IMG/VR virus record: IMGVR_UViG_3300045115_000228 | Direction: 5' to 3' (one strand) | From: an uncultured virus (IMG/VR IMGVR_UViG_3300045115_000228) | Lineage: Duplodnaviria; Heunggongvirae; Uroviricota; Caudoviricetes | DNA: 20,000 bases | Part shown: piece by piece, positions 1 to 15,531 of the stretch | Layout of the letters: every line of letters begins with the position of its first letter | Numbering within the stretch: the stretch's first letter is position 1 | Notes under the pieces: model-generated | What the model was told of the DNA's origin: nothing | Database searches by the model: none | What the model saw: the letters and a program-made list of their open reading frames with translations, nothing else | Made by a program: the position numbers and the translations under genes

Positions 1-2
1 GC

Positions 3-3000
3 GTGTTCCTCGGGGCCGACTCCAGCGCGCGCGCGAGGCTGCTGCACTTCGAGAACGAGCACGGCGAGTCGAGGTGGATCCCGGCGTCCCACATCAGGCG
101 GATATGGGCCGACAGGACGAGGTTCAGGGTCCAGGTGCTGAACGGCGGAGGCGACTGGGAAGACCATGCCGTGCAGCCGTGGTTCGAGCGGAGGTATCCG
201 ACGGCGGGGGCGGCGCAAAGGGCGATCTCGCGCTATGTCGAGGCCTACCGCAACAGCCACCGGGCCGATCCGGGCGTCACGATGCGCGTCATCGACGAGG
301 AGGGGCACGAGTCGCCATCCCCGTTCGGAAGGTTCGTGGTCGAGGTGTTCCAGGGCCTGGGGGCGGGATGGGCGACCGTGCCGTGGCTGACCGGCAGAGG
401 CGGCGAGCTGGGGTTCTCGACGCGCCAGGCAGGCGAGCAGGCCCTGTCCGACCGCCTGGCGGCCAACCCCGAGACGTCGGACGAGCCAGGGAACTACCGC
501 GTCGTGGACAGGAGCCTGATCCGGAGGACGGCGTCCGCGGGAGGGGTGGGGAAGAGGGCCCAGTTCGACGACGACGGATCCTTCGAGATCGCCTTCCACG
601 AGCTCGGCCCCGATCGGAAGCCTGGCCAAAGGACGTGGGTCTTCGCCGTCGGCCCCAACGGGCGCAACGTCTACTTCAACGACAAGGACGAGTGGGACAG
701 GACACGCAACCCGCCCGAGAAGTCCGGCAACGACGACGAACTCATCGACAGGGTCAAGTGGCTGACGGGGACGGCCGACGACGGGGCGATGGGCGTGTTC
801 GAGCTCGACCCCGGCCAGATCGAGAAGGTCAGGGCCGACCCCTCGTTCGTCGAGGACGGCGACTTCAAGGCGTGGTGCATGAACGCGTTCCCCCACTTCA
901 GGAACGTGGAGGAGTTGACCCTGCTCAGGAAGAGCGGCGACGCGTGGGACTCCATCGGCAGGTTCAGCACGATGGACTCCCTGTGCAGGATCGTGGAAGA
1001 CCAGGTGGCGCGCGGAGGGGACTTCTTCGACTACGGCGCCAGCAGCTCCGTGACCGGCGGCGTCCAGTTGTTCATGATCCAGAAGCAGGTCAACGGGAGA
1101 TGGGGCCACCCGAGGGCTGGCCGCAGGGTCGTCTTCGACGACTACGACGCCGCGACCGCCGCCCTGGGCAGCCCGGGGGAGTTCCCTTCCGACAGCGGGG
1201 ACTACAGGATCGTCGGCAACTGCTCCGACAACCCCGACAACCTCCGCGGGCGCTTCGTCGTCCAGCGCAGGACGAGCCGTGGCTGGCATGCGCCGTACTG
1301 GGACGGGGCCGTGTCGTTCGACGACCCCAGGATCGCATGGCGCGACGTCCAGTCCTACCTGTTCGACCACCCCTCCGCCAGCCCAGGCGACTTCAGGATG
1401 ATCGACGCCCAAGGGGGCACGGCGTCGCCGGCCGTCCTGCCGATCCCGCCGCCGGACAGGTACAACCTGATGAGGCAGGACGAGGACGGCGAATGGATGA
1501 CATTCGGCCACTACGGGGCGGCCGACGACGCCCGCAGGCGTCTGGCCGAGCTGCGCGCCGGCGACCCGACCAACCGGTACAGGGTCGAGCCGGTCTTCCC
1601 GGAGCCAAGACCCGAACCGAGGACAGAGCGCCAATCTTGGGCGGTCGCGAGGTTTGTCGACGACGGGCCTCGGTGGCAGATCGTGTCGGTGTTCGGCACC
1701 AGCGAGGCCGCCAACCGCGAGGTCGCAAGGCTGCGGCTGGCGGAACCCGAGACCAGATTCGGGGTGATCCACAACGTCGTCGAGGCTTCGGCGTCTGGCA
1801 TGGCGAGGACGGCCCAGTTCGACGACGATGAGGAGGAGTTCCAGATCTCCATGCACGAGCTGGAGCCGCCTCCTCCAAGGCCGCCGATCCAGAAGACCCC
1901 GGTCAGGCAGGTCTTCATGATCGAGGAGAGGGCAAGCGACACCGGCGAATGGTCGCCCATCAGCCTGTCAGGGGAAACCGCTCCGAAGTGGTTCTCGTCC
2001 GTCGAGGACGCCGACGCGTTCCTGAGCGGGTACATCAACAGGCTGCTCGACGAGGACGGGGCCGACCTCGACGCCGCCGACAGGAACAACTACAGGATCG
2101 TCGAAGCCTACGTGGACGAGGAGACTGGCAGGCCCGTCGATATGGCTCCCCAGAGGGAGCCGATCGGCGAGGCGACGCAGGCCGGCGGCGCCCAAGGCGG
2201 CGCCCGGCACATGTACATGATCCAGCACGAGTTCGACTACGGATGGGACTACTTCGGGGACAAGAGCGACGACGGGAGGGAGGAGCCATCCGAGTTCCAC
2301 GCCACCGAGGAAGCCGCCAGGGAAGACCTCGAAGAATTCCTTCAGGAGTCCGCCGCCAACGACATGGAATACTCCCGCGACGAGTTCAGGATCGTCCCGT
2401 GCCGCTTCGCCATCGAGGCCCAGGAGGACAGGCCGGGCAGGCCGGCGGAATGGGGCGACGGGGGATGGGAGGACGAGAACGGCGTCAGGATGACGTTCCC
2501 GACGCCCATGGAGGCCCGCGCCGAGATCGCGAACTTCACGGCCGGCAGCCAGAGGAACCGCAACCCCGCCGCGTTCAGGGTCGTCCCGATCCCGCTCGAA
2601 CGCATCCCGGGGTTCGCACAAGCAAGGCAGGACATCCGTCCCCCGCTGCTCTTCGCCTCCGTGACCGTCGACGAGCCGATGGCGGCGAGCATCCCCCAGT
2701 TGAGGGGCCGGGAGGGGGCATACGTCGTGTTCGTCGTCAGGCGCCCGTACTGGGACGAGCACCACGCCCTTGAGCCGAACGAGGACGAAGAGTGCGTCGA
2801 CGCCGTCATGGACGGGGCCATCGACGCCTTCCCGTTCGACGAGCCCAACGTGTTCGTCACGAGGCTGAACGACGTGCAACGCCTCCGCGACGACCCCAGG
2901 TTCGAGGAGAGCCAGGAGCTCGACACGTTCGTCGAGGCGTACGACCTGCGCTTCGCCGACGACCGAAGCCGGCTGCGCCAGGACAGGAACGGGCGCTGCT

Positions 3001-6000
3001 TCATCGACGACACCCCCATCGTCGTCAACGACAGGTACGCTTGGACGGTCCACCCGAGGTTCGCCGGAGAGGCGAACAGGATCGGGGTGGCCGGCGGGGG
3101 CATCATCGGATCGGGGATCCTGCGGGAGATCGACGTCGAGAGACAGGCCCTCACCTTCAACATATCCGACAACGCCATCGTCGACCGCCGACTGAACGCA
3201 TGGTGGATACAGGGCATCCGCCTGCTCAGGTCCCCCACGCGCGGCCTTGGCAGGGTGCGCAGGGCGCAGTTCGAGGACGACGGATCCTTCGAGATCGCGG
3301 TCCACGAGATGGATCCGACCCCGCCGCCGCGGCGGGAACAGCCGGCCAAGGCGGATTCGCAGGCCACGCCAGGGACCGATCCCGACGCCCCATACCGCAT
3401 CGAGCGGCTGGGAGAGGCGGGCGGTCAGGCCGTCGTCGAGACGGTGTTCGAGGAGACCCCGCTCGGCCCCGGGGGAAGGACGAACAGCTTCGACCACCTC
3501 GCCGACGCCAAGGCAGCCCTGTGGTCCGTCCTCTCGTGCCCCAACCAAGACCCGTCCGGCTACCGCATCGTCAACGGCCGCGGGGAGGCGCTGCCAGACG
3601 CGGAATGGTGGGCCGAGGTCGCAGGCAGGATGGGGTACGTCGTGCAGTACCGCAAGCCCACGGGGGAGTGGGACAGGATCGATCCGCTCGGGAACCCGAC
3701 CTACGAGCTCGCCAGCCAGGCGGCCACGAGGTTCGTCAACGACCACCCCGACGTCGGAGGAGGGGACATCCGGATCGTCCCGACCCACGTCGTCAGGGAC
3801 GACGAGGACGCCCCGGAGGCCCAGGCCGACGCCACATGGGTGTACGAGACGGAGCCCATCGACACGGCCATGCGCTCCGCCCTCGGGATGCCACCCGGAT
3901 CGCTCATGGTCACGTTCAAGAGACGCAGCCTGGCGCAAAGGAACGCCGTCGGCGGGAGGCCGGACAGGGAACTCAACGCGACGCTGTCGGGACTGTCCGT
4001 CGGCAACAGGGTCAGCGGGCCGGGGTCGAACCACATGAGGGCGATGACCCTGACGGACCTCTCGCGCCTGCAGGAGGACCAAAGGTTCGCCGACGCGTCC
4101 GCCCGCTACTACGTCGAGGGGAACATGGCGGGACACGCGGGCGGCGAGGTGTGGAGAAGGCTGGAAGAGCCGCACATGACGTCCTTGGACGCCACGCTCT
4201 ACGCCGCGACCCAAGTGGCGAGCCACGGGCACCTCCACGACGGCCGCCCGCAAGGGATCCGCGAGTACAGGGTCGTGAGTGGGTCGGGCGAGGAGTTCGA
4301 CACGTCGGGCTCGTTCGTCGTCGTGGACAGGACGCCGTCCTACCCCGACGAGGCCCGCTTCGTCGTCTCCAGGGAACCGAGCGGAAGGATGGCCCCGCTG
4401 CGCAGGACGTTCTCCAGCGCCGAGGAGGCGGCCGACGCCGCCGTCGGCTGGTGCATCGACAACTCGTACCCTGTCCACGCCATCGAGGTCGTCGACATGG
4501 GCGCCCAGCGGGCGATCCCCCTGGCGCGGCTCGCGGCAGGAAGGCGCGCGCCCGGATCGGGCGAGGACGAGATCGTCGCCGGCGGCACGACGCTGCGCGT
4601 CGGGCAGGCCTATGCGTTCGTGTACGCCCCCGGGGCCGCCGACCGCCGCTCCGCGCTCCCCGGCAGGGCCATCCTCGCCGGCATAGAGCCGTCGGCCGGG
4701 GGCGGGGCCACGCTGGTGCTGCAGAACTTCGACGAGGACGAGGACGAGGACATCCGCGTCGGATCACAGTGGATAGCCGCCGCATCCCCCCTCGACGTCC
4801 CCGAAGAGCAGGTGGACGTGGTGGAAACCGACGGCTCCGTCGCGGGCGCCCCCGCCGCATGGGCGAACAACCCCTACGCGACCCGCGCCGGGGCCAGGGC
4901 CGCCATAAACGACCGCCACGACCAGACCAACGACGAGAACGCCTACGCCATCGTGGGCCACACGTCCAGGACGCTGCTTGAGGTGATCAGGGTTCCGCGG
5001 TGGTCAATGGAAGGCATCATCCCGGCCACGTCGATAACGAGGGCGATAGCGGGGAGGATGTCCCGCATCCTGCGCTCGATGGGCTATGCCTCAAGGGGGG
5101 CCGACGACGTGCTTGAGGCGCTGCGCGGGCGCCCGAACGGCGGACGGCCGATGCTCGACGACGGCAGGCTGTGGCACCCCGACTGGGTCAGGGCGTACGA
5201 GCAGGCCGTGACGCGCCGCAGGGCGTCCACGAGGATCGCCCAGATCGACGACGAGGGAGCGTTCGAGATCGCCGTCCACGAGACGGAGCCGCAGGAGCGG
5301 GGGACCGCGGCCGAGCCGGCGGGGCAAGCCAAGGCGTGGCCGCCCCTGTACGACCCCGACGCGGAGGGGATCGACGAGGACGCCGCGAGGAAAATCTTCG
5401 AGGGGCACGGGTTCGCCCTGCTGGACGTGCGCCAGCCGTACCAGTCGGACGCCCACGTCGCCGCCTTCGACATCGAGTCCATGAACCTCGACGGGATCGC
5501 CGAGCCGGAGGAGCTCGTCGCCGTCAAGCGGGTCCTGCAGGCCGACGGTCACGCGACGGACGTCAGGATCGATTCGACCGGCCCGTCCGCCATCGTCACG
5601 TTCGACGTCCCCGTCTTCTACGTGCGACGCCCGTTCTTCGGCGGCTCGGCGCGCCCGGCCGCCAAGACCGCCCAGTTCGAGGAGGACGAATACTTCGACG
5701 TCAGCTTCCTCGGGGAGGCGGCGCAGGAGGCCCACGAGAGGGACATGATAGCCGGCCAGGAGTGGTTCGCGATCCAGTACAGGACGACCTACGGATGGCT
5801 CGTGCCGAAGTGGGACCAGCCGTGGGCCGGGGGGAAGACCTGGGGCCCGACGGCCTACCCGACCGAGGACAAGGCAAGGGATGCGATCAGGAACTACGTG
5901 TCCGGCAACGCCAGCAACTTCAACCCTCCCCTCACGACCAACAGCTTCCGCGTGGTCAGCAACAAGCGGGGCGTGATCCCCGTCCCCCGCTTCAGGGCCT

Positions 6001-8762
6001 ACTACGCCAACGACGACGGGCGCAGGATGCCGTTCTCCGGCGAGCTGGCGCACCAGTTCGGAAGCGAGGCCGAGGTGAGGGAGGCCATCGAGAGACACGT
6101 CAAGGAGCACAGGACGACGGCCAGGAAGGCGCGGTACGTCGTCGTCGACGAGTCGACGGGGGACGACGGGGCGCCCGTCGTCGACGGCAGCGACGGGAAG
6201 CCTGAGCGCTTCTTCGTGCAGCACGGCAAGAGGGAGAAGGACTACGCCTTCCTCGCCGGGGGCGACGGCAAGCCGAGGGAGTTCGGGTCGGCGGACGAGG
6301 CGTTCCGCGAGGCCACGAGGATCGTCGCGAGGAACGCGCCCCCGCACAAGGTCAGGGTGATCAGCAGCCACTCCGGCGTCGTCGACCCGAGGCCCCAAGT
6401 GCCCGGATCCGGCGAGCCGAGGCTGCCGGACGGCCAGTTCCAGGAGCCGTACGCCATCGAGCAGTGGGACGCCCCCTCGTCGTCGTGGACGACCATATCG
6501 CACCGCGGCTACGAGCGCGCGGACGAGGCGTGGGCCGCCGCGGCGAACATATCGAGGACGACCAACGGCCCGTCCCCCTCCGGTCTGCGCGTCAGGGACT
6601 CCGCCGGCCGCATCCTGCCCCGCCCGCCCTTCTTCGGCGAGCAGGACCCTCCGAACGTCCGCAACCCCTGGAGGATCGAGTACAGGATGACGGGCGCGTC
6701 CCCAAGCTCCCCATGGAACCACCACGCGTCCTACGCCACGCGGGAGGAGGCCCAAGGCGTTCTGGACGAGATCGGCGACACCCTCGCGAGGGTCACCACC
6801 ATGGACGTCAGGATCGTCAACGTCGACTCCGGACAGCCGAGGGTCGTCGTCCAGAGGACAACGCCGACGCCAGGCGCGGGATCGGGCGGGAACTACTACC
6901 CGCAGGCGCTCGACCCCGAGGCCGGAGGATGGGTGCTGCTGGACGGGCAGTCCAACGCCACATTCGCCACGCCCGAGGAGGCGTGGTCGTCCGCCCGGCA
7001 GTGGATGAACGCGGGCCACATGCTCCCCGCCCCAGACGCCTCAAGGATCAGGGTCGTCGGGCCTGACGGGCGCCCCGTGCGGAGGGCGCCATTCTGGGGG
7101 AGCGAGGCGGTGCCCATCTCCGAGTGCGAACAGTGCGGGGCGTTCCACGAGCTCGACTTCGCGGACGACTGCCGCGACAACAACCACAGGTTCTCCGACG
7201 CCGAGGACGCATCCCGCAGGCTCGGCAGGCCCGCGGTCGAGGTGTACCCGCCGGAAGAGGAAGATCCGGAAGAGGAGGGGCAAGACGACAGGGACGTGTC
7301 ACCCGTCGCGCTCACGCTCAACATCCCCTACGCTCTGACGTTCACGAACGACGTGGACATGAGACCAACGACGGCCACGCTCCGCATGGTGCAGGGTTCG
7401 CTCGATGGCAACAGTCATGTGCTCACATTCGAAAACCCGCGCGGAAACCGCTTCAGCATCGATTGGAGGAACGTGTCGTCCTGCGTCAGCGTCATGGAAA
7501 GGCTGGAATACCTGCGCGGCGAGATCGATGCCGAGCGGATCAGCCAGGAGGAGATCGCCGAACTGCAGGGTCTCGCGGAGTTCATCGAGCCGGGCGACGT
7601 GACCCTGCTCCAGTGGGCCGGGGTCCCGGAGGAAGGACAGGCGGAGCCGCAGCCCCCCTTCTTCCCCCAGACCAACGTCCAGGGGCAATGGCGCCCGATC
7701 AGGCGCCTCGTCCCAGGGGGAGCGCGGTCGGACGAGTTCCCGACCGCGGACGAGGCCTGGGGGACGGCGGACGAACACGCCAGGAGGAACGGCCTGATGC
7801 CCGTGATGGTCAGGGTCGTCGATTCCGCCGGCAACGACGTCCCGAGGCCAAGCCAGGCGGACGAGTCGAGGGAAGGGCCAACGGTCGCCGGAGTCAGGCT
7901 CGTCAGGGACGAGGTCTACGACGTGACCTACGGGCCCAACAACGAGTCCATCGACGGGGTGTTCGTCGGTGTCGACCCGCCCTCGGCATGGCTCGTCTTC
8001 CGATCCCCTCCGTCGTCGGAGAGGACGATCGCCATCGACCCCAACGAGGTGGTCTCCGTCCGCCGGGACGCCCCTCCTCGGCGCAACAGGAGGGGGCGGG
8101 GTCTCACGGTGGGGCAGCGCGAGAGGCTGATCCGGGGCTTCGCCGAGTGGAGCGGAGGGACGACCCCCGACAGGGCCAACAGGGAGGACGTGGCGTCGTA
8201 CGTCCAGTCGTCGCTCCCCGACGACGCCCCCGCCGGGGCCGCCGAATGGCTCCTGTCGATCGCCGGCACCGGCCCGCAGAACGATCCGGCGACGGAGAAC
8301 ACCAGGCCGCCGCCGGAGTCGTTCGTCAACGGCCAGACCTACTCGTGGACGTCCACGACCAACGCCAACCACCCGACCCACGGATCCTACATCCAAAGGG
8401 GCGTCACCGGAAGGGGAGAACCCGTCCTCCTGTTCGAGGACGCCCAGGGCGACCAGTTCGACGTCAGGTGGGACGCGATGACGACGGTCAACATCGAGGG
8501 CGGCCAGGACGCCGGGGCCCTGTACCTCAAGTTCACCGAGACCCCAGAGGGGATGCAGGCGATCACGGCGGCCCAGTCCATCCTTGAGGACGCCGACTCC
8601 GGCGTCGACCAGCAGCAGGCGGTCGATTCCGCCATGGAGCACGCCGAGAGGTGGTACCGGGACCTGCACGAGGGGTTCGCCGGATCGTGGGAGGACGACT
8701 GGGGGGAAGTCAGCGAAGCCTTCGCCGACGAGGTGAGGAACGCCATCGCCTTGAGCCGTTGA
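3..8762 (+). CDS. Giant multidomain repeat protein (putative phage polyvalent protein/polyprotein), 5'-truncated at window edge
   Basis: Uninterrupted 2919-codon frame with G/C-ending codons and normal globular amino-acid composition, unlike the Arg/Pro/Gly-rich alternative frames. About 22 copies of a ~50-65 aa module, about 6 copies of a beta-rich module and 5 copies of a [KR]xAQ[FI][DE][DE] motif. The frame begins mid-domain at the window edge, so the true start lies upstream. Confidence is for coding status; function unknown. Confidence 0.93.
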   Translation: MFLGADSSARARLLHFENEHGESRWIPASHIRRIWADRTRFRVQVLNGGGDWEDHAVQPWFERRYPTAGAAQRAISRYVEAYRNSHRADPGVTMRVIDEEGHESPSPFGRFVVEVFQGLGAGWATVPWLTGRGGELGFSTRQAGEQALSDRLAANPETSDEPGNYRVVDRSLIRRTASAGGVGKRAQFDDDGSFEIAFHELGPDRKPGQRTWVFAVGPNGRNVYFNDKDEWDRTRNPPEKSGNDDELIDRVKWLTGTADDGAMGVFELDPGQIEKVRADPSFVEDGDFKAWCMNAFPHFRNVEELTLLRKSGDAWDSIGRFSTMDSLCRIVEDQVARGGDFFDYGASSSVTGGVQLFMIQKQVNGRWGHPRAGRRVVFDDYDAATAALGSPGEFPSDSGDYRIVGNCSDNPDNLRGRFVVQRRTSRGWHAPYWDGAVSFDDPRIAWRDVQSYLFDHPSASPGDFRMIDAQGGTASPAVLPIPPPDRYNLMRQDEDGEWMTFGHYGAADDARRRLAELRAGDPTNRYRVEPVFPEPRPEPRTERQSWAVARFVDDGPRWQIVSVFGTSEAANREVARLRLAEPETRFGVIHNVVEASASGMARTAQFDDDEEEFQISMHELEPPPPRPPIQKTPVRQVFMIEERASDTGEWSPISLSGETAPKWFSSVEDADAFLSGYINRLLDEDGADLDAADRNNYRIVEAYVDEETGRPVDMAPQREPIGEATQAGGAQGGARHMYMIQHEFDYGWDYFGDKSDDGREEPSEFHATEEAAREDLEEFLQESAANDMEYSRDEFRIVPCRFAIEAQEDRPGRPAEWGDGGWEDENGVRMTFPTPMEARAEIANFTAGSQRNRNPAAFRVVPIPLERIPGFAQARQDIRPPLLFASVTVDEPMAASIPQLRGREGAYVVFVVRRPYWDEHHALEPNEDEECVDAVMDGAIDAFPFDEPNVFVTRLNDVQRLRDDPRFEESQELDTFVEAYDLRFADDRSRLRQDRNGRCFIDDTPIVVNDRYAWTVHPRFAGEANRIGVAGGGIIGSGILREIDVERQALTFNISDNAIVDRRLNAWWIQGIRLLRSPTRGLGRVRRAQFEDDGSFEIAVHEMDPTPPPRREQPAKADSQATPGTDPDAPYRIERLGEAGGQAVVETVFEETPLGPGGRTNSFDHLADAKAALWSVLSCPNQDPSGYRIVNGRGEALPDAEWWAEVAGRMGYVVQYRKPTGEWDRIDPLGNPTYELASQAATRFVNDHPDVGGGDIRIVPTHVVRDDEDAPEAQADATWVYETEPIDTAMRSALGMPPGSLMVTFKRRSLAQRNAVGGRPDRELNATLSGLSVGNRVSGPGSNHMRAMTLTDLSRLQEDQRFADASARYYVEGNMAGHAGGEVWRRLEEPHMTSLDATLYAATQVASHGHLHDGRPQGIREYRVVSGSGEEFDTSGSFVVVDRTPSYPDEARFVVSREPSGRMAPLRRTFSSAEEAADAAVGWCIDNSYPVHAIEVVDMGAQRAIPLARLAAGRRAPGSGEDEIVAGGTTLRVGQAYAFVYAPGAADRRSALPGRAILAGIEPSAGGGATLVLQNFDEDEDEDIRVGSQWIAAASPLDVPEEQVDVVETDGSVAGAPAAWANNPYATRAGARAAINDRHDQTNDENAYAIVGHTSRTLLEVIRVPRWSMEGIIPATSITRAIAGRMSRILRSMGYASRGADDVLEALRGRPNGGRPMLDDGRLWHPDWVRAYEQAVTRRRASTRIAQIDDEGAFEIAVHETEPQERGTAAEPAGQAKAWPPLYDPDAEGIDEDAARKIFEGHGFALLDVRQPYQSDAHVAAFDIESMNLDGIAEPEELVAVKRVLQADGHATDVRIDSTGPSAIVTFDVPVFYVRRPFFGGSARPAAKTAQFEEDEYFDVSFLGEAAQEAHERDMIAGQEWFAIQYRTTYGWLVPKWDQPWAGGKTWGPTAYPTEDKARDAIRNYVSGNASNFNPPLTTNSFRVVSNKRGVIPVPRFRAYYANDDGRRMPFSGELAHQFGSEAEVREAIERHVKEHRTTARKARYVVVDESTGDDGAPVVDGSDGKPERFFVQHGKREKDYAFLAGGDGKPREFGSADEAFREATRIVARNAPPHKVRVISSHSGVVDPRPQVPGSGEPRLPDGQFQEPYAIEQWDAPSSSWTTISHRGYERADEAWAAAANISRTTNGPSPSGLRVRDSAGRILPRPPFFGEQDPPNVRNPWRIEYRMTGASPSSPWNHHASYATREEAQGVLDEIGDTLARVTTMDVRIVNVDSGQPRVVVQRTTPTPGAGSGGNYYPQALDPEAGGWVLLDGQSNATFATPEEAWSSARQWMNAGHMLPAPDASRIRVVGPDGRPVRRAPFWGSEAVPISECEQCGAFHELDFADDCRDNNHRFSDAEDASRRLGRPAVEVYPPEEEDPEEEGQDDRDVSPVALTLNIPYALTFTNDVDMRPTTATLRMVQGSLDGNSHVLTFENPRGNRFSIDWRNVSSCVSVMERLEYLRGEIDAERISQEEIAELQGLAEFIEPGDVTLLQWAGVPEEGQAEPQPPFFPQTNVQGQWRPIRRLVPGGARSDEFPTADEAWGTADEHARRNGLMPVMVRVVDSAGNDVPRPSQADESREGPTVAGVRLVRDEVYDVTYGPNNESIDGVFVGVDPPSAWLVFRSPPSSERTIAIDPNEVVSVRRDAPPRRNRRGRGLTVGQRERLIRGFAEWSGGTTPDRANREDVASYVQSSLPDDAPAGAAEWLLSIAGTGPQNDPATENTRPPPESFVNGQTYSWTSTTNANHPTHGSYIQRGVTGRGEPVLLFEDAQGDQFDVRWDAMTTVNIEGGQDAGALYLKFTETPEGMQAITAAQSILEDADSGVDQQQAVDSAMEHAERWYRDLHEGFAGSWEDDWGEVSEAFADEVRNAIALSR

Positions 8763-8787
8763 CCCCCGGCCAAGGAGGACCTATAAT
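8759..8787 (+). promoter_or_regulatory. Sigma70-type promoter TTGACC-N17-TATAAT
   Basis: TTGACC 8759-8764 (contains the TGA stop of the giant ORF), 17-bp spacer, perfect TATAAT 8782-8787; GGAGG at 8796-8800 and ATG at 8807 downstream. Confidence 0.8.
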
Positions 8788-8806
8788 GGACGACCGGAGG
8801 AGCCAG

Positions 8807-9415
8807 ATGGAACCGAGGAAGACCAGGGAGGAAGGAGGCGGCGTCCTCGCCGCCATCGCCAGGCTGATCAACAACATCCTTGAGTTCCTCGCCAACAGGA
8901 GGAGGCGACAGGAGGAGGAGCTCAAGCGCAAGGAGATCGAGGCGGCCAAGGACGAGCTCAGGAGGGCCCTCGCCGAAGGCAGGGAGCAGGACGCCGCCTA
9001 CTGGCGCAAGAGGCTGCTCATGCTAACGGGGGCCCTGGCCGCCGCCCTGCTTCTGTTCGTCGGCCCGGCGGGATGCAGGACCACGGGAGGTGACGCCCAG
9101 CCCGCCCATCCCGCCCCTCCCGCGCAGGTCGTGCAGGCGGAGAGGGTGTCCAAGGCCAAGCCCGGCGACGTCCTCGTCCTGCCAGCCCCCACGCCCCCGG
9201 CCACGCGCTGGGTGCTGGCCGACGACGTGGGGATCTTCCAGGCCGTCGACGCCGGCGTGGTCGTGATGGGCGACAGGTTCAGGGACGTCGCCCCGGGAAG
9301 CCCGTGCGAGGTGCCGAGGCTGAAGCCGCCGGCGAGACAGTGGTATGTTGCCGACGACGTCGGCCTGAAGGAGTGGATGGGGATAGCCCTTGGGCCGTCC
9401 CCCAAGGGAAGGTGA
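8807..9415 (+). CDS. Membrane/lipoprotein with N-terminal helical/coiled-coil segment, internal signal-peptide-II-like segment and duplicated C-terminal motif (possible spanin-like lysis protein)
   Basis: GGAGG RBS 6 nt before ATG 8807 (alternative ATG 8786 overlaps the -10 box). Charged helix RRRRQEEELKRKEIEAAKDELRRAL; then RKRLLMLTGALAAALLLFVGPAG-C (Cys codon 9074-9076); two copies of PP(A)xxWxxADDVG. Confidence 0.75.
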   Translation: MEPRKTREEGGGVLAAIARLINNILEFLANRRRRQEEELKRKEIEAAKDELRRALAEGREQDAAYWRKRLLMLTGALAAALLLFVGPAGCRTTGGDAQPAHPAPPAQVVQAERVSKAKPGDVLVLPAPTPPATRWVLADDVGIFQAVDAGVVVMGDRFRDVAPGSPCEVPRLKPPARQWYVADDVGLKEWMGIALGPSPKGR

Positions 9416-9418
9416 GCC

Positions 9419-10138
9419 ATGCCGTTCTACTTCAGGGTCAACAGGGTCAAGGTCATCGACAACCGCGAGTGGGGCCTGTGGATCCTCAAGCGCGACATCG
9501 CGCAGGTCAGGTTCACCAGCCTCGTCACGACGGGCGACGACGACTTCCCGGCCGTCGGCGCCCTCAAGGGCGGGGCCAGGGACGCCAAGGCGCTCCGCGA
9601 CGCCGCGGCCTCCGTCGTGGCCCAGGTCATAAGCCGGAGGACGACGCTCGCCATCGACGGCATCAAGGACGGACAGACCATCACCTTCGGCGACACGGGG
9701 TACGTCGTACACCGCTCCGACGCCATCCCCGAGGACTTCAACTGGTGCCTGCTCGCCATGGAGGACGAGCAGGCCCTGCGCAACTTCGGCCAGACCCTCT
9801 CGACGGTCGTCGGGTCGTCCGGCTTCGACGGCTTCGCCCAAGGGCTGTCCGTCCTCGTGGGGGCGTCAGCCAACCCGGCGTTCGCCGCCGGGACAGCCGT
9901 GGCCAAGTTCGTCGCCGAGGTCCTCGCGGCGTACCTCAAGGGCAAGGGCGACGAGATGATCGGGGCCCTCTACCTGTCCCTCAACCGCCGCGAGCACTAC
10001 CCCCACGGCGAGCGCAAGTCGGACGGCGTGCCGGACCTCTCCGGCAACATGCTCGTCGACTACTCGCTGTTCGGGTTCGAAGCCACGCCCCCGGTGCCAG
10101 CCGACGCGCCGCCGGCGGCGCCGCGCAGGATGCCCTGA
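9419..10138 (+). CDS. Hypothetical protein (239 aa)
   Basis: ATG 3 nt after the previous stop, with a GAAGGTGA RBS-like sequence; strong GC3 bias; globular sequence with a Gly/Ala-rich hydrophobic helical hairpin (GLSVLVGASANPAFAAGTAVAKFVAEVL). Confidence 0.85.
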   Translation: MPFYFRVNRVKVIDNREWGLWILKRDIAQVRFTSLVTTGDDDFPAVGALKGGARDAKALRDAAASVVAQVISRRTTLAIDGIKDGQTITFGDTGYVVHRSDAIPEDFNWCLLAMEDEQALRNFGQTLSTVVGSSGFDGFAQGLSVLVGASANPAFAAGTAVAKFVAEVLAAYLKGKGDEMIGALYLSLNRREHYPHGERKSDGVPDLSGNMLVDYSLFGFEATPPVPADAPPAAPRRMP

Positions 10139-10984: not shown

Positions 10985-12130
10985 ATGTCTGGAAACATCA
11001 CTCTGGCGTCGCATCTGTTCGACCTCAAACAGCGCGAGGAGGCGGACATCCGGATGGCGGTGTCCCTCGGGAGGAACAAGGCCATCCTTGTCGAGGGAGA
11101 CTCAAGGGAAATGATGGATCACATCGATGCCGAGAGCGCATCCCTGGTCTTCACCTCTCCACCGTATTGCATCGCCAAGCAGCGCGAGTACGGAGACGGA
11201 CAGTCAACGGACTACTCCCCCGACAAGTACGTCCAGTGGGCGATGACGTTCGTGCCCCACATCGAGCGTGTCCTCTCCCCCCGTGGCGTCTTCGCGCTCA
11301 ACATCGATGCCGGATCCATGCGCGGGGAACAGATGACCCAGGACATGGAACTGGTCATCAGCATCGTCAGGGGCAGCGGCCTTTTCCTCCTCCAGAAGTT
11401 CGTGTGGGCGAAGAGGAACTACATGCCGGGGTACTGGCCCAACCACTTCGCCAAGAGCCACGAGCTCGTCTACGTGTTCGCGAAGCGCGGCCTCAAGGGG
11501 GATCTCCTTCGCCGCGACAGGATGATGGTGTACCAGGGCGCATGGAGGGGCAAGAGGCTCATCGGGAAGTCATACTCCGGCGATCTCAAGAGGAACGTGT
11601 CGGCCACCGGCAGCGGCGGAGGAAGGCGCGTCGCCAACTGGTTCACTGGCGACCCCAAGTGCCCCACCAAGGAGGTCGCCTACCCCTCCAGCGTGCTCAG
11701 GCTCCCAACGTCGTGCTCCGACAAGGGGCACAGCGCGTCCTTCCCCATCGCGCTGCCGTCGTGGTTCGTCAGGGCGTACACGGATCCAGGCAGCCTCGTG
11801 GTCGACTGCTTCGTCGGCGGAGGCACGACGTGCTCGGCGGCATCCATGCTCGGCAGGAGGTCGGTGGGGATAGACCTGTCGCCGACGAAGGCTTTCAAGG
11901 ACGAGCGGGCTTTCCTGGCGTCCGACAAGGCCGCCGCGGCACACAGGGCGTCAAGGATGACCGACATGAGGACGGAACTCGCCATGGTCAAGAGGATGCA
12001 CGCCGAGACCGGCCTGTACCCATCGATCAAGGACTACGAGATCGACGAGCAGGCCATCTCCGCCATGGCCAACGCCCGCGAGCAGGATCCGATCCGCGGC
12101 TGTATAATGGCCGCATGCTCGGATACCTGA
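10985..12130 (+). CDS. Beta-class amino (N4-cytosine/N6-adenine) DNA methyltransferase, probably m4C
   Basis: EGDS...LVFTSPPY catalytic motif IV near the N-terminus; GHSASFPIALP and LVVDCFVGGGTT...GRRSVGIDL SAM-binding motif I near the C-terminus (beta order). SPPY is typical of m4C MTases. Confidence 0.93.
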   Translation: MSGNITLASHLFDLKQREEADIRMAVSLGRNKAILVEGDSREMMDHIDAESASLVFTSPPYCIAKQREYGDGQSTDYSPDKYVQWAMTFVPHIERVLSPRGVFALNIDAGSMRGEQMTQDMELVISIVRGSGLFLLQKFVWAKRNYMPGYWPNHFAKSHELVYVFAKRGLKGDLLRRDRMMVYQGAWRGKRLIGKSYSGDLKRNVSATGSGGGRRVANWFTGDPKCPTKEVAYPSSVLRLPTSCSDKGHSASFPIALPSWFVRAYTDPGSLVVDCFVGGGTTCSAASMLGRRSVGIDLSPTKAFKDERAFLASDKAAAAHRASRMTDMRTELAMVKRMHAETGLYPSIKDYEIDEQAISAMANAREQDPIRGCIMAACSDT

Positions 12131-13041
12131 CCTACCACAAGCCTTGGCCGGATGGCGACGACAAGGAAGGCTGCGTCGAGCTCGCCAACTACGTCGAGCC
12201 ATTGTTCATAGCGACGCACGGGCCCGGAACGCGCCTCGGCATCCCGATCCGCCGAAACCCCGAGAAGGACTCGAACCCGTTCGCGATCGACCTGTCCCAC
12301 TCCGTCGCAGGGCCCTCGGACCTCAAGTTCAGGCGCGACCCGTTCTACTTCGGCGAGCGAAGGTACTCCGTCCACCCGCAGTACCTCATGACGTTCAACA
12401 GCGAGGACTCCCAATGGTATGCGATGGACCACGGGGATCCAGGAATCTACTTCTGGACGCAATGGGAGCCGTCCGACTCGGACGACGCCGGCCTGTTCCA
12501 CGGCAGGAGGCAACTCGTCAGGGGCATGGTGTCAGTCCATGAGGCGAGGCTTGCGGAGGTCGTCGCCGAAGGAAGCCGACGGGAGAGGCATTGGTACCGC
12601 AACAAGACCAGGGTCTTCGGGGACGGAGGGAACAAGAAGTCCTCGCTGGTCATCGACTTGCGCCGGCTGCCGTGCATCGACATGGAACTGGACCCGGAAT
12701 GCTGGCCAGACACCCCCGAGGACTTCACCGGGATGCTGAGGGACGAGATCGCGTATGGCAGGTTCTCCGACGGGGACGCGCTCCCGTTCGCCTCCAACGA
12801 GCCGATGGCCTCCGTCGCCGAGTCCGCCGCACTCATCCTTGAGTCGGAGGGGCTCGCCAGGCGGTCGGAAGTCAGGCTCCTCGACGGGAGGGTCGTCGGC
12901 AGGTGGACCACGACCGTCTCCCCGTACGAAAGGCTCATGCTGACGTCGAGGCTGGCCCGGGAAGGCTTCAACGAGCGCCAGGAGGGCATCAGGATGATGT
13001 CATGCCGCAACCCGTGGGCCAGGAGGAGAGGGATCGGATGA
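12115..13041 (+). CDS. Putative PD-(D/E)XK-fold nuclease (308 aa)
   Basis: Only the C-terminal part of ORF 9304..13041, from ATG 12115, has protein-like composition. E...NPEKDSNPFAID-L...PSDLK pattern fits a PD-(D/E)XK active site. The stop overlaps the next ATG (ATGA 13038-13041). TATAAT at 12103-12108 sits just upstream. Coding status confident, nuclease call moderate. Confidence 0.65.
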   Translation: MLGYLTYHKPWPDGDDKEGCVELANYVEPLFIATHGPGTRLGIPIRRNPEKDSNPFAIDLSHSVAGPSDLKFRRDPFYFGERRYSVHPQYLMTFNSEDSQWYAMDHGDPGIYFWTQWEPSDSDDAGLFHGRRQLVRGMVSVHEARLAEVVAEGSRRERHWYRNKTRVFGDGGNKKSSLVIDLRRLPCIDMELDPECWPDTPEDFTGMLRDEIAYGRFSDGDALPFASNEPMASVAESAALILESEGLARRSEVRLLDGRVVGRWTTTVSPYERLMLTSRLAREGFNERQEGIRMMSCRNPWARRRGIG

Positions 13042-14060
13042 GGTCGGCAAGCCTGTTTTCCGGGGCCCTTGGACTCGACCTCGGCCTTGAGGCCGCCGGG
13101 TTCCACGCCGTGGCCGCCGTCGAAAGCGACAGGCATGCCGCGGCGACGATCCGCCGGAACCGGCCGGGCGTCGAGATCCTGACGGACGCCTTCGACCAGG
13201 CGACGCTCGCGAGGCTCAAGGAGCTCGGCCCGTTCGACCTGGTGTGCGGCGGCCCGCCATGCCAGAGCTGGTCCCACGCCGGGAAGAGGCTGGGCCTCGA
13301 CGACAACCGCGGCCTCTGCATCCCGAGGTTCATCGACATCGTGGCCCTGCTGTCCCCGGAGTTCGTCGTCATGGAGAACGTCCACGGGTTGATGACCGCG
13401 TCCATCGACGGGGAGAAGGGCGCCGTCGTCAGGATGGCGACGGACAGGCTGTCGAGGATGGGATACGCGGCGAGCGTGATCCTCGCCAACGCCGCCGACT
13501 TCGGGACGCCCCAGTCGCGCAAGCGCGTCGTCATCCTCGCCAGGCTCGGCGGACCGGCCCCGAGCCTGGAACAGACGCATGCCCAATCCCAACAGCCCGA
13601 CCTCTTCATGGGCGCCCCCCTCCTCGCCAAGTGGCTCACGCTCAAGGACGCGATAGGCGACAGGCCGAAGGGCGATTGCGCCGCCTATCCGGAGTCGAAG
13701 GCGAGGTTCTTCCGCATGATCAAGCCGGGCCAGGACTGGAGGAGCCTCCCAGAGGCCGAGCAGGAGGCCGCGATGGGGAACGCCATCCGTTCCGGCGGAG
13801 GACGGACAGGCTTCTTCCGCAGGCTGTCGTGGGAAAGACCGTCGCCAACCCTGACGTGCAGCCCCCTGGGGAAGGCCAACGCCTTCTGCCACCCCGACGA
13901 GGTCCGCCCCCTCAACGTCGCCGAGTACGCCCGCGTCCAAGGCTTCCCCGACTCCTGGAGGTTCGAGGGGCCCCTCATGGCCCGCTACCGCCAGATCGGC
14001 AACGCCGTCCCCGTCCAGCTCGGCGAGGCCATCGGCAGGGCGCTGTCGGAAAGCAGTTGA
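13038..14060 (+). CDS. DNA (cytosine-5)-methyltransferase (340 aa)
   Basis: All hallmark C5-MTase motifs: SLFSGALG (I), GGPPCQSWS (IV), ENV (VI), QSRKRV (VIII), RVQGFP (IX), YRQIGNAVP (X). Start coupled by an ATGA overlap with a purine-rich RBS. Confidence 0.97.
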   Translation: MRSASLFSGALGLDLGLEAAGFHAVAAVESDRHAAATIRRNRPGVEILTDAFDQATLARLKELGPFDLVCGGPPCQSWSHAGKRLGLDDNRGLCIPRFIDIVALLSPEFVVMENVHGLMTASIDGEKGAVVRMATDRLSRMGYAASVILANAADFGTPQSRKRVVILARLGGPAPSLEQTHAQSQQPDLFMGAPLLAKWLTLKDAIGDRPKGDCAAYPESKARFFRMIKPGQDWRSLPEAEQEAAMGNAIRSGGGRTGFFRRLSWERPSPTLTCSPLGKANAFCHPDEVRPLNVAEYARVQGFPDSWRFEGPLMARYRQIGNAVPVQLGEAIGRALSESS

Positions 14061-14091: not shown

Positions 14092-15531
14092 ATGAAGGAA
14101 CCCACAGCCACTCCTGCGGACGACTCCCTTCCGAAGACGACGGAAGACGGATGGAGAGCCGACAAGACATACGAGACGTCCGGGAAGACGGCCAAGTATG
14201 CCATGGGCGTCGCCTGCGGCCTTGAAAAAGAGGTGTCCGACCTGAAGGAGAGAAGCCACAAGGACCTGTTCAGGATCATGAGCGTGCAGGCCTCCCAAGC
14301 GCGCGAGCGGCTCGCGTCCTTCGGATTCCACGTCGCGTCAGCATTCCCGGAGCCGCTGTCGGCCTTCCACCTGTCGCCGCACGGGGTGGTCGTGGTCAGG
14401 GGATGTGCCGACATGTCCATGAGCAACTTCTTCCCCAACGACGGCGGCCAAGCCGTCCCGGAAGACATCTCCGTCGCCTACCACCGTGTCCCTCGCGAGT
14501 TCTTCAAGGAGGGATGGCTTGACGCCACCGAACAGACGTTCAAGAGGATGGTCGTGGAATACCCCAGCGAATGCCTCCTGTCAATGCTGGACAGGTCCCT
14601 GAAGGCAGACTTCATCGTCGTGCTCGGTGGGCCTAGCGGTCTTGACGTCAACATCGACCCCATCCCGCTCCCCCCCGTTGTCGTGAGAACCAGCGACGTC
14701 AACAGGAATGCCATCGAAAGGGTCATCCGCCGCATCGCCGTGACCAAAGAGCCGTTGGCCAAGTTCAGGAGCAACAGGAGATACGACGAGAACGACCCGT
14801 GGGGCGGGTCCTACAACTCGTGGGCGTTCGACCCCGAGACAGGGATCAGGCTGGCAAGGTTCGCCTCCCAGGCGAACAGGGCAACGACCCAGACGTCGTT
14901 CGTCATGTCGTCCATCCTGTACTTCGGAGGAGTCATGCCCGGCTGGATGTCCCCCCCTCGGGTTGGCCAAGCGGCGTGCTTGTCGTCCACCCTGTACAAG
15001 GGGTCAGTCTTCGGGGACGAGACGCAACCCCAGCCCCTTCCGCCGACGGGCGAGGACCCCGCGGACGAATGGTCGCCCATTGACCAAGAGTCGGAAGGCG
15101 ACCCCAGGTTCCAAGAAGGGAGAAGGAAAAGAGGAAGGCATTCGCGTCTGGAGCGCGACCCCGCCCTGCGCAAGGCGTTCCTGGCCGCCAATCCGAAACC
15201 GCGGACCTGCGAGGCTTGCCTGACCAACTTGACGTCACGATACCCGTGGACGGAAGCCATTCAAGTACACCATCTCCTGCCCCTGTCTTCGGACGCCAGC
15301 AGTGGGACCACAAGCCTCCACGACGTGGCGGGACTTTGTCCAAGTTGCCATGTGGCCATCCACTCGTTCTACGACATGCGCCTCGCAATGGCCGGCAAGG
15401 GGGACTTCGAGTCCATCGACGAGGCAAGGACCGTGTTCGAAACGGCGTGCGAGTCCATACGCGGACTGGCAGAAGACGCCAATGACGCTCCAGTTGGCAA
15501 GGAAAACGGCCATGCGCACGTTCAGGATTGA
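14092..15531 (+). CDS. Protein with C-terminal HNH (McrA-like, zinc-binding) endonuclease domain and ~330 aa unrecognised N-terminal region
   Basis: FQEG...HSRLERDPALRKAF, CEAC, QVHHLLPLS, LCPSCHVAIH: the EG/H-x3-ER/CxxC/HH/CxxCH signature of McrA-type HNH nucleases. Confidence 0.88.
   Translation: MKEPTATPADDSLPKTTEDGWRADKTYETSGKTAKYAMGVACGLEKEVSDLKERSHKDLFRIMSVQASQARERLASFGFHVASAFPEPLSAFHLSPHGVVVVRGCADMSMSNFFPNDGGQAVPEDISVAYHRVPREFFKEGWLDATEQTFKRMVVEYPSECLLSMLDRSLKADFIVVLGGPSGLDVNIDPIPLPPVVVRTSDVNRNAIERVIRRIAVTKEPLAKFRSNRRYDENDPWGGSYNSWAFDPETGIRLARFASQANRATTQTSFVMSSILYFGGVMPGWMSPPRVGQAACLSSTLYKGSVFGDETQPQPLPPTGEDPADEWSPIDQESEGDPRFQEGRRKRGRHSRLERDPALRKAFLAANPKPRTCEACLTNLTSRYPWTEAIQVHHLLPLSSDASSGTTSLHDVAGLCPSCHVAIHSFYDMRLAMAGKGDFESIDEARTVFETACESIRGLAEDANDAPVGKENGHAHVQD

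Follow-up and report, generated by a model that had tools for sequence, protein, structure and literature searches.

Is the short motif that punctuates a giant open reading frame the mark of a polyprotein that is cut into pieces? The question is raised by a window (the whole stretch of DNA analysed, 20,000 nucleotides) from an uncultivated, probably viral element of lake water. The earlier note on this DNA had proposed that a prohead protease cuts at the motif, a basic residue followed by x-A-Q and acidic residues, within an internal head protein, leaving a common N-terminal tag on each fragment.

The window truncates the 5' end of the giant ORF, which is open from base 3 and encodes 2,919 aa at nt 3-8762 (+). 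Another 738 aa sit upstream on a metagenome contig, L010, which is identical to window bases 1-389 (389/389) and has the start codon at its nt 1050. The full-length protein, P0010, is encoded on a 142,314-bp contig and has 3,657 aa. The ORF is truly coding, judging from the GC3 of its frame, which is 0.81-0.96 (about 0.92) over its whole length. The element is probably a large phage, a status that we infer. The N-terminal head of P0010 is Acb1/2H-phosphoesterase-like; behind it, the chain comprises about 23 small beta-beta-alpha-beta domains, about five small domains rich in beta structure and a few larger ones of unknown type. The beta-beta-alpha-beta mini-domain (D) has roughly 65 aa, ends in [YF]R[IV]V and is predicted to fold with pLDDT 85-97; 18 copies lie in the window.

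3..8762, + strand: C-terminal 2,919 aa of P0010 (open frame, GC3, L010 overlap)
93..7838, + strand: D-domain array as a whole (alignments and HMM)
93-311; 312-521; 1041-1232; 1224-1421; 1422-1607; 1875-2120; 2178-2411; 2397-2603; 3360-3590, + strand: D domains 1-9
3609-3797; 4071-4295; 5733-5975; 5979-6164; 6174-6380; 6408-6614; 6639-6836; 6855-7076; 7623-7838, + strand: D domains 10-18

Translation and a regular-expression scan confirmed the five motif copies reported in the window, with the sequences as quoted. They start at nt 552, 1806, 3258, 5232 and 5664, corresponding to aa 184, 602, 1086, 1744 and 1888 of the 2,919-aa ORF, and the block sizes of 418, 484, 658, 144 and 1,032 aa that had been derived from them are correct.

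522..611, + strand: window copy 1 (protein copy 2), small/basic tract RRTASAGGVG, then KRAQFDDDGSFEIAFHELGP
1776..1868, + strand: window copy 2, VVEASASGMA, then RTAQFDDDEEEFQISMHELEP, then Pro-rich linker
3228..3317, + strand: window copy 3, RSPTRGLGRV, then RRAQFEDDGSFEIAVHEMDP, then Pro-rich linker
5202..5291, + strand: window copy 4, QAVTRRRAST, then RIAQIDDEGAFEIAVHETEP
5634..5756, + strand: window copy 5, FFGGSARPAA, then KTAQFEEDEYFDVSF, then helix GEAAQEAHERDMIA leading into a mini-domain

A sixth copy, RTAQFDEEDGAFEIGTHEIEP, is located upstream of the window, after the 2H head, at aa 242 of full-length P0010. The Pro-rich stretch said to follow most copies is clear for window copies 2 and 3 and partial for copies 1 and 4, but copy 5 has a helix instead.

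The motif is not expected by chance. When the residues of the protein were shuffled 20,000 times, at least one match to the core AQ[FIY][DE][DEG][DE] appeared in 156 shuffles, and two or more in none. A six-frame scan of the window returned five matches to this core, all of them in the giant ORF, and no second carrier of the motif was found among the other ORFs of the window and L010 (23 kb together). In P0010, the motif is present at just six of more than 30 inter-domain junctions, and therefore it is not a generic linker.

An exhaustive phmmer search of 1.84 billion proteins identified only four relatives, three of which are also giants that share the head of P0010, its mini-domains of roughly 65 aa and its motif. 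The D-domain HMM, which was iterated on the D family itself, counted 23 copies in P0010, 11 in P0003, 9 in P0004, 15 in P0005 and one in P0006. Only the 2H head, the mini-domains and block 5 are common to all four giant proteins. Retention of the motif in three distant relatives shows that it is genuine, selected punctuation. Across 22 copies in the four proteins, the consensus core is [KR]-T-A-Q-[FIY], followed by an acidic run: K/R occupies position 0 in 20/22 copies, T position +1 in 12, A position +2 in 21, Q position +3 in 20, F/I/Y position +4 in 18 and D/E position +7 in 19, counts that are biased toward the motif because the sites were picked by regular expression and by eye. Conservation reaches further upstream, with Ala at -7 (12/22), Ser at -6 (11/22) and a small or aliphatic residue at -1, and downstream of the core it runs for about 10-15 residues. 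The acidic tag described in the earlier note exists, but it is variable: FEIAxHE is just one of at least two forms, an H-E-[LMTI]-[EDG]-P element is present in 8/22 copies, and two or three copies of the relatives are without the acidic half and have the V-K-T-A-Q core alone. One copy in P0014, a near-identical assembly variant, has the sequence KRAKFDDDG, in which K replaces Q; this may be an error, because the record has several other odd substitutions. The motif is indeed better conserved than its neighbouring domains, as the earlier note had stated: the eight strongest among the internal self-BLAST matches listed all cross a copy. Outside the head domain, most BLAST matches to the relatives are 23-43% identical, the exceptions being a 26-aa match over a motif (50%) and a 67-aa match (46%).

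The motif delimits multi-domain blocks whose order varies among the relatives. In P0003, the window's block 2 stands before block 1, and in P0005, block-0-like domains stand after block 5; the edges of collinear BLAST segments coincide with motif copies. Window copy 1 has an ortholog at aa 817 of P0003, and window copy 5 has one in each of the three giant relatives. In all four proteins, the 2H head leads straight into the first copy, also in P0004 and P0005, where this copy has no acidic half, and V-[KR]-T-A-Q is therefore the minimal unit; it parts the sole recognisable enzyme from the remainder of the protein. Searches for short proteins returned no homologues with the blocks as separate genes, which is a weak point against cleavage.

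The AlphaFold predictions place the motif between folded domains. In the model of two D domains flanking copy 2, pLDDT falls below 50 only at nt 1788-1814 (SASGMARTA), a stretch that stops one residue short of the core Q, and model residues 62 to 104 form no secondary-structure element; the flanking domains have pLDDT 85-97, one of them being modelled without alignment support. In the model of copy 5, no DSSP element is assigned to the motif residues, whose pLDDT is 67-75, and the helix comprises model residues 26-38. The exposed-linker check suggested by the earlier note thus predicts a flexible linker, and the buried strand that it had named as contrary evidence was not seen. Taken together, the variable block order and the low pLDDT reaching into the core between folded domains characterise a linear motif that is exposed, under selection and placed where cassettes meet.

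The genes flanking the giant ORF encode guanylate kinase, two orphan DNA methylases, HNH nucleases and a predicted membrane protein, the latter called from its own sequence, with no family match.

10985..12130, + strand: N6/N4 DNA methyltransferase (Pfam N6_N4_Mtase, 107.5 bits; PHROG 67)
12903..14060, + strand: C-5 cytosine DNA methyltransferase (Pfam DNA_methylase, 206.4 bits; PHROG 116)
14092..15531, + strand: protein with C-terminal HNH nuclease domain (Pfam HNH, 26.3 bits)

Such a neighbourhood suggests an early or anti-defence region rather than a head-assembly module, and no virion genes were found within the 23 kb. Pfam and PHROGs revealed no protease family in the giant protein or its relatives, and no protease was detected in the other ORFs of the window or L010, so that the prohead protease proposed earlier was encountered neither in the giant protein nor in the 23 kb. 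Virion association is seen for the closest IMG/VR relatives of the head domain, of which one forms a fusion with a lambda-type portal-like ORF and one adjoins a Baseplate_J gene.

What remains of the original interpretation, which is partly supported, is a selected punctuation in predicted flexible linkers delimiting blocks, whereas the head protein, the prohead protease, the cut at [KR]-x-A/Q and the acidic encapsidation tag are so far unsupported. We infer that the motif is recognised in trans. Its most likely function, with a probability of about 0.4, is that of a cleavage site plus retained tag. A trans-acting protease, from the phage (e.g., a prohead-type enzyme) or the host, would cut in or beside [KR]-T-A-Q-[FIY], preceded by a flexible Ala/Ser/Gly tract; it would free the 2H enzyme head first and then six more multi-domain fragments, and the acidic/aromatic stretch would remain at every new N-terminus as a common handle. 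That recognition means cleavage, which bond is cut and whether the acidic part acts in packaging are speculative. Prohead proteases trim packaged phage proteins at short motifs, and the T4 targeting peptide has 10 aa (PMC9026906); for polyvalent phage proteins with a 2H domain fused to portal or MuF, proteolytic processing has been proposed (PMC5512222).

A serious, if doubtful, rival is that the motif is never cut and serves as a multivalent docking site, in which the acidic/aromatic stretch with its KTAQ preface binds the basic groove of a partner, either a host hub or an assembly protein of the phage (portal, scaffold or capsid interior) by which the uncut string would be packed into the head. 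The conserved stretch is longer than the subsites of a typical protease, and a binding motif would explain it at least equally well: past the core, it enters an acidic run with an aromatic end, the context is predicted to be exposed and disordered, and multiple copies per protein would add avidity. Some copies (FDDDGSF; GDIPY/GDIPH in P0005) resemble the bacterial SSB C-terminal tip, which is acidic and aromatic-ended. However, that tip works only as a free C-terminus, and the copies here are internal unless cut. Giant proteins need not be cut, since the N4 virion RNA polymerase of roughly 3,500 aa is packaged unprocessed (PMC5512222), and a string of roughly 7-kDa domains could plausibly pass through the tail channel. 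On the other hand, two or three copies in the relatives keep only V-K-T-A-Q, and pure docking would not call for a position at reshuffled boundaries. It is unlikely that the motif is a passive scar, the N-terminal edge of an ancestral repeat that was spread by internal duplication and inter-cassette recombination, has no trans-acting reader and was kept because it is a good flexible, soluble connector. The massively duplicated units, the varying block order and the similarity of the motif DNA copies over up to about 36 nt, which could promote recombination, would fit such an origin. Yet the linkers of the other 30 or so domains show no conservation, and four to five residues have stayed the same in both GC-rich and AT-rich-looking lineages in spite of drift in the neighbouring domains, which argues for direct selection on the peptide; reader-less disordered segments seldom hold positions at 20-21/22.

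Self-processing, by an unrecognised internal protease domain or by His-Glu-x-[DE]-Pro chemistry at an autocatalytic or cis-cleaved site, appears improbable. Autoprocessing by embedded peptidases has been proposed for polyvalent proteins (PMC5512222), several domains of 100-220 aa are without assignment, and the H-E-[LMTI]-[EDG]-P element recurs; against this, no peptidase signature was found in the protein, HE-x-x-P is missing from most P0004 and P0005 copies, and the only parts common to all four proteins are those named above. Very improbable, and largely refuted, is a structural strand of a folded domain or a site acting at the DNA level (internal start, promoter or recombination). An in-frame GTG or ATG does lie 3-4 codons before A-Q in three of the five window copies, but the other two have no start-like codon, the relatives have no conserved M/V position, and it is the peptide, not the codons, that is conserved across very different codon usage; a strand is at odds with the low confidence and lack of secondary structure predicted for the motif.

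The head of P0010 resembles the Acb1 anti-CBASS nuclease and other 2H (LigT-like) phosphoesterases, with two H-x-T motifs (HPHVT and HATL), a Pfam Acb1 score of 28.0 (gathering threshold 27) and a match to PHROG 755; the heads of the relatives, at 17-22 bits, are below the Pfam cut-off. Acb1 proteins are small stand-alone enzymes, whereas this head leads a 3,657-aa chain. Eukaryotic virus polyproteins, too, are single precursors in which a short site with an invariant Gln recurs in flexible inter-protein junctions, and there they are cut at it (picornavirus 3C cuts at Q/G; ASFV pp220 is cut at GG-X), but they encode or accompany a known protease, and none comparable was found for P0010. To our knowledge, this strategy is not established for tailed phages, and we know of no repeated mini-domains or punctuation motif in the N4 virion RNA polymerase. 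The latter is also a giant virion-delivered phage protein, of about 3,500 aa (PMC5512222), but it is an unprocessed polymerase with no sequence similarity to P0010. In T4 internal proteins, which carry a capsid targeting sequence, and in the head/ejection proteins of phiKZ, 201phi2-1 and SPN3US, which are trimmed by gp21-type prohead proteases, a short peptide signal in an accessible segment also sets the fate of cargo that counters host defence (PMC9026906). Those signals are N-terminal propeptides of separate small proteins, with the cut after Glu in [LI]-x-E or [SAG]-x-E, whereas the signal of P0010 is internal, repeated in one precursor and centred on K-T-A-Q, with no gp21-like protease or head gene within 23 kb.

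The closest likeness is to the polyvalent proteins of phages and conjugative elements (Iyer, Burroughs, Anand, de Souza, Aravind 2017; PMC5512222), single very long polypeptides of mobile elements with many domains. They include 2H phosphoesterases, fused there to portal or MuF and predicted to destroy defence-related nucleotide signals, and parts of such proteins have been proposed to be released by proteolysis. P0010 differs in having one recognisable effector domain, the remainder being about 28 copies of two unannotated mini-domains, and in having no MPTase or other peptidase, MuF, portal, ParB, helicase or methylase module; the part of PMC5512222 available to us makes no mention of a punctuation motif at cassette boundaries. 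We regard P0010 as a giant 'beads-on-a-string' polyvalent protein, whose nearest known kind is the phage polyvalent proteins, and the motif as a short linear signal in exposed linkers that marks its cassette boundaries.

The giant gene of this element is an open reading frame that is free of stops over window bases 3-8762 and encodes 2,919 residues, and since its third-position GC content (GC3) is 0.81-0.96 along the whole frame, we consider it to be truly coding. When metagenome contigs were scanned with the head domain found in the relatives, contig L010 was returned. Its final 389 bases match window bases 1-389 without a difference (389/389), and the true start of the gene is on it. The full-length protein, P0010 (3,657 aa), is present in the protein collection and is encoded on a contig of 142,314 bp; other near-identical copies are encoded on contigs of 125 kb and smaller. 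The extra 738 residues consist of a first ~75 aa without known function, followed by a domain containing two H-x-T motifs. The gene and its neighbours are as follows:

Upstream of the giant gene: guanylate kinase
3-8762, + strand: window part of the giant gene
Downstream of the giant gene: predicted membrane protein, judged from its sequence rather than by a family match
Downstream: unknown protein of 239 aa
Downstream: N6/N4 methylase and C5 methylase, both orphan
Downstream: two HNH proteins

No tRNA gene was found in the window, and no capsid, terminase or tail gene in the 23 kb read. Both strands of window 1-9000 contain long shadow ORFs of up to 836 aa, which run antisense to the giant gene or in another frame and should not be called genes, as their GC3 pattern is that expected of high-GC antisense frames. 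Near the end of the window, short GC-rich repeats that follow the pattern CGCGATCG-N-CCG are clustered in an apparently non-coding stretch (19817-19928), with 10-nt spacing and in two groups 80 nt apart; the cluster also forms an inverted pair.

The earlier note had described a basic-[KR]xAQ-acidic motif that occurs five times in the giant ORF and divides it into blocks; across the relatives its core is [KR]-T-A-Q-[FIY], with an acidic run after it. A regex scan of the window ORF recovered all five copies as quoted and confirmed their nucleotide starts (all + strand):

552: motif copy 1, aa 184
1806: motif copy 2, aa 602
3258: motif copy 3, aa 1086
5232: motif copy 4, aa 1744
5664: motif copy 5, aa 1888

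The block lengths of 418, 484, 658, 144 and 1,032 aa were likewise correct, and a sixth copy, RTAQFDEEDGAFEIGTHEIEP, is present at P0010 aa 242, directly after the head domain. Of 20,000 shuffled versions of the protein, 156 contained the core AQ[FIY][DE][DEG][DE] one or more times, and none contained it two or more times. The view that the motif stands out from its surroundings held in a windowed self-BLAST, in which the eight strongest internal matches listed all span a motif copy. A six-frame scan of the window found the six-residue core nowhere outside the giant ORF. The DNA of the copies varies at synonymous and non-synonymous positions alike, which argues that the repeat is kept as a peptide, and the motif DNA pattern gave no matches in viral, genome and metagenome contigs.

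A total of 22 motif sites (6 + 4 + 5 + 7) was gathered from P0010 and its three giant relatives, P0003 (1,643 aa), P0004 (2,240 aa) and P0005 (3,167 aa).

Residues at the 22 motif sites; the sites were picked by regex and by eye, and the counts therefore lean toward the motif.
Position -7: Ala, 12/22
Position -6: Ser, 11/22
Position 0: K/R, 20/22
Position +1: T, 12/22
Position +2: A, 21/22
Position +3: Q, 20/22
Position +4: F/I/Y, 18/22
Position +7: D/E, 19/22

The downstream half of the motif is variable, the form FEIAxHE-x-[DE]-P being present in 8/22 copies, so that conservation comes down, at the least, to the core plus its small-residue preface. Window copy 5 belongs to a form that runs on into an amphipathic helix, as do its orthologues in the three giant relatives, and core-only copies (V/E-K-T-A-Q or a near-variant) are found twice in P0004 and once in P0005. 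In P0014, a near-identical ENA copy of P0010, the motif at P0010 aa 922 reads KRAKFDDDG and not KRAQFDDDG; this Q to K change may be an assembly error, and the record has about eight further odd substitutions. Its sequence does not agree with several other readings that were considered: as an internal start of translation, as a calcium loop resembling an EF hand, as a clamp-binding or PIP-like motif, as an L27 site of Prp type, or as a Pup or ubiquitin-like tail.

The first motif copy comes after the head in all four giant proteins, and in P0010 the motif is present at only 6 of the >30 domain junctions. BLAST maps showed that the blocks between motif copies are rearranged among the relatives. 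The match of P0003 to P0010 1333-1617 (window block 2) precedes its match to P0010 997-1292 (block 1), the best match of P0005 to P0010 340-472 (block 0) comes after its block-5 match, and several collinear segments start or stop at motif copies, such as P0003 1091, which corresponds to P0010 2626. The surroundings of the motif were modelled with AlphaFold, using alignments of paralogues from the window and L010 only, in which 5 rows cover the motif columns. Model 2, for which the pLDDT averages 83.2, spans window 1590-2132 (a ~65-aa repeat unit that we call the mini-domain, copy 2, and another mini-domain), one of its flanking domains being modelled without alignment support. Its sole stretch with a pLDDT below 50 is the tract leading into the core (residues 67-75, SASGMARTA, nt 1788-1814), and residues 62 to 104 are predicted to be free of secondary structure; averaged in steps of ten residues, the pLDDT over the motif is 57, 51 and 65, versus 85-97 in both flanking domains. 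In model 1 (copy 5, helix, next mini-domain), the motif is without regular structure (pLDDT 67-75) and is followed by the helix. An integral buried strand at the motif, which would have spoken against the processed polyprotein proposed in the earlier note, was seen in neither model. Together, the BLAST maps, the 22 sites and model 2 present the motif as a repeated short site in inter-block junctions that are predicted to be accessible, a trait of viral polyproteins that are processed by a protease.

Four domains of block 5 are each followed by another short sequence of linker type, [RP]-P-[PA]-F-[FW]-G (window 5625-5642, 6621-6638, 7083-7100 and 7650-7667), in the variants RRPFFG, RPPFFG, RAPFWG and QPPFFP; P0003 contains an identical LPRPPFFGEQDPPNV, and P0005 has RPPAWG.

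The giant protein begins with a 2H phosphoesterase-like head. Its two catalytic motifs of the type H-x-[TS], HPH[VI]T and PHATL, do not vary among P0010, P0003, P0004 and P0005, and the first H-x-T motif is also found in the truncated copy of the head on contig L011. The P0010 head scores 28.0 against Pfam Acb1 (cut-off 27) and 24.3 against 2_5_RNA_ligase2 of the 2'-5' RNA ligase superfamily (cut-off 27), and it matches PHROG 755 with an E-value of 2.8e-11. The heads of the giant relatives reach 17.4-22.2 bits against Acb1, and a sequence-profile search of the PDB gave no match to the head. Judged from sequence, the head is a member of its superfamily by its motifs and only marginally by score. 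Nine IMG/VR loci encode related 2H domains (37-44% identity), and these relatives place the head in the 2H clade of the kind fused to portal or MuF proteins. On the IMG/VR contig L006, an ORF of 881 aa that has the 2H domain at its C-terminal end matches Phage_portal_2 (E 5.4e-8; 32.8 bits, just under the cut-off of 32.9). In this ORF (7904-10549) a lambda-type portal-like region is joined to the 2H phosphoesterase via a long low-complexity linker, and by its sequence the product looks like a virion-attached nucleotide-signal nuclease. A stand-alone 2H copy adjoins a Baseplate_J gene on the 190-kb viral contig L008. Both contexts agree with Iyer et al. 2017 (PMC5512222), who describe fusions of this sort of 2H domain to MuF or portal proteins and state that it may degrade defence nucleotides.

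Most of the remainder of the giant protein that could be assigned is made up of mini-domains, which end in [YF]R[IV]V and align well among themselves. An HMM iterated on the family identified 23 of them in P0010 (18 within the window), 9-15 in each giant relative, and a total of 58 in the four giants plus one in the short relative P0006 (255 aa), counts that are partly circular because the HMM was built from the same proteins. The fold predicted by AlphaFold from the paralogue alignment is beta-beta-alpha-beta (pLDDT 85-97). Foldseek found no match in the PDB at E <= 0.001, and the ESM Atlas gave no usable match to the fold. In a structural search against representatives (VIA-align wide) the best Z was 5.5. 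Among the matches were two small proteins of anti-CRISPR type, namely a 70-aa chain of a type I-C CRISPR-Cas3 entry (Z 4.9, rmsd 3.2, 66 aligned) and AcrIIC5 (Z 2.9); since these scores are below the tool's caution line, they indicate no more than a small alpha/beta arrangement of a widespread kind. Pfam found nothing on 22 mini-domain and motif pieces, and Pfam and PHROGs found nothing on the window part of the giant protein. The nearest Pfam match was to DUF7336, with 24.9 bits (cut-off 25) for the mini-domain at P0003 aa 1210-1239 and 14.5 bits for that at P0005 aa 2270-2287; by sequence, the mini-domain may be distantly related to this family, which is without known function.

A few segments of 100-220 aa in the giant protein are without assignment. 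Inspection by eye also showed another small beta-rich repeat, ~60 aa long and present in about five copies (window 87-113, 4593-4793, 7323-7493, 7899-8069 and 8322-8501, plus one on L010). It starts with Y-x-W/F and ends with I/V-x-W-x-x-[IV] (e.g. SHIRRIW, FSIDWRNV and FDVRWDAM), and it appears SH3-like by eye only, with no Pfam match. A Cys-rich segment, CEQCGAFHELDFADDCRDNNHRF, at window 7125-7193 is kept in P0004 as ECGQCGGYHREGYGGDCRNNQERF and is possibly a small zinc-binding knuckle.

When the first 1,200 residues were compared exhaustively by phmmer with 1.84 billion representatives, only four proteins were returned. The three giant relatives, which are encoded on contigs of 45 kb (P0003), 26 kb (P0004) and 16 kb (P0005) and by residue composition look as if they come from AT-richer genomes, all start with the same head (68-82% identical to that of the window protein), and all contain the motif and mini-domains; other BLAST segments are mostly 23-43% identical, and up to 52% where the head is included. 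P0006 has one mini-domain in common with them. The observation of the motif is solid, and it extends to a small and very rare protein family. Megablast and tblastn searches of INPHARED phages and PLSDB plasmids gave no match to the window DNA or protein, one genome per GTDB species contained no relative by motif DNA pattern or 2H head alignment, and IMG/VR contained nothing for protein P0001, P0003 or the downstream 239-aa protein. In word-indexed protein searches the whole giant protein found only itself, and neither shorter proteins with block 5 nor stand-alone mini-domains were found. The window stretch is present in 14 lake-water metagenome runs, with no RNA run among those listed, and near-identical contigs recur in runs dated 2018 to 2025. 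Contigs from four runs show few differences to the window, mostly G>T or C>A, and they consequently provide no usable signal of selection on the motif.

Our best guess is that the element is an uncultivated large phage, because it has orphan methylases and HNH genes, its contig is at least 142 kb, its relatives are absent from cellular genome representatives, and near-identical contigs recur in lake water. That it is of mobile-element origin is inferred from the methylase and HNH neighbours, the absence from GTDB, and the virion contexts of the 2H relatives in IMG/VR.

Four properties of the motif, namely its 4-5 near-invariant residues, its flexible small-residue tract, its location at the borders of independently reshuffled multi-domain blocks, and the fact that its first copy parts the sole enzyme from the rest, taken together are what one would expect of a site that some factor recognises in trans; by analogy, it most resembles the junctions of polyproteins. 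According to PMC9026906, prohead proteases trim packaged proteins at short motifs, and in T4 a peptide of 10 aa, later removed, serves to load internal proteins; in PMC5512222 polyvalent proteins are proposed to be cut before or after delivery. From such phage biology, a prohead protease-type enzyme would be a plausible reader. Because of the junction-like pattern and this plausible reader, we rank first the reading in which the motif is a processing site that leaves an acidic handle behind, and we give the hypothesised cleavage a probability of about 0.4. Against it, Pfam and PHROGs recognised no protease in the giant protein, the giant relatives or the neighbours (23 kb of the contig), the neighbourhood is not a head-gene neighbourhood, conservation extends well past the usual protease subsites, and the near-identical variant has K for Q in one copy, possibly through an assembly error. 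Self-processing of the giant protein is very unlikely. In the fullest form of the cleavage reading, which we regard as doubtful, a tailed phage would make a 3,657-aa precursor with an Acb1-like head that is cut at K-T-A-Q into seven cargo proteins sharing an acidic handle, for anti-defence delivery. These proteins would consist of ~30 novel mini-domains, the handle on each would load the capsid or hold the product on a common partner, and the anti-defence arsenal would travel with the DNA from a single gene, its cassettes being freely reshuffled between phages.

The main rival, tentative though worth serious weight, is that the chain stays intact and docks at several points through its acidic/aromatic peptide, be it for loading or to a hub protein of the host; the giant virion polymerase of phage N4 is a precedent for an uncut giant. 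This part of the motif may resemble the C-terminal tip of SSB, in which an acidic run ends with an aromatic residue at a free C-terminus. The motif has both the acidic run and the aromatic residue, but internally, and it would acquire a free C-terminus only after a cut. That the motif is a passive scar of duplication is unlikely, and a structural or DNA-level role, set beside a repeat kept as a peptide, is the most improbable of all.

The nearest known kind of giant protein is that of the polyvalent proteins of phages and conjugative elements, which also combine many domains in one polypeptide. However, as described in PMC5512222, these contain several different effector or enzyme domains, often with a peptidase (MPTase), whereas Pfam and PHROGs recognised only the 2H head above threshold in P0001, P0003, P0004 and P0005; the lack of such a mix sets the giant protein apart. 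The T4-type capsid-targeting sequence (CTS) is an N-terminal 10-aa propeptide on a separate small protein, whereas the motif copies are all internal to the giant ORF, and no short motif-led proteins were found in the core scan of the window or the searches for short block-5 proteins and stand-alone mini-domains. Proteases of the gp21 family cut after Glu, at [LI]-x-E or [SAG]-x-E; 8/22 motif copies end in [VFMTI]-H-E, but the others do not.

To our knowledge, there is no earlier case of a tailed phage encoding a multi-product polyprotein with reshufflable cassettes, and full-text searches of open-access papers and bioRxiv found no phage polyprotein described that would be comparable. If the motif is processed, this would be the first such polyprotein known from a tailed phage, and if it is a processing or loading signal, it would provide a sequence handle for a hidden class of phage cargo and anti-defence proteins. 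The ~65-aa mini-domain, with no Pfam match above gathering score and no clear structural relative, is a candidate for a new family of small modules that act as inhibitors. Should the motif serve for docking alone, it would still define a testable interaction between a peptide and its partner, in a virus that is uncultivated and has persisted in lake water over several years.
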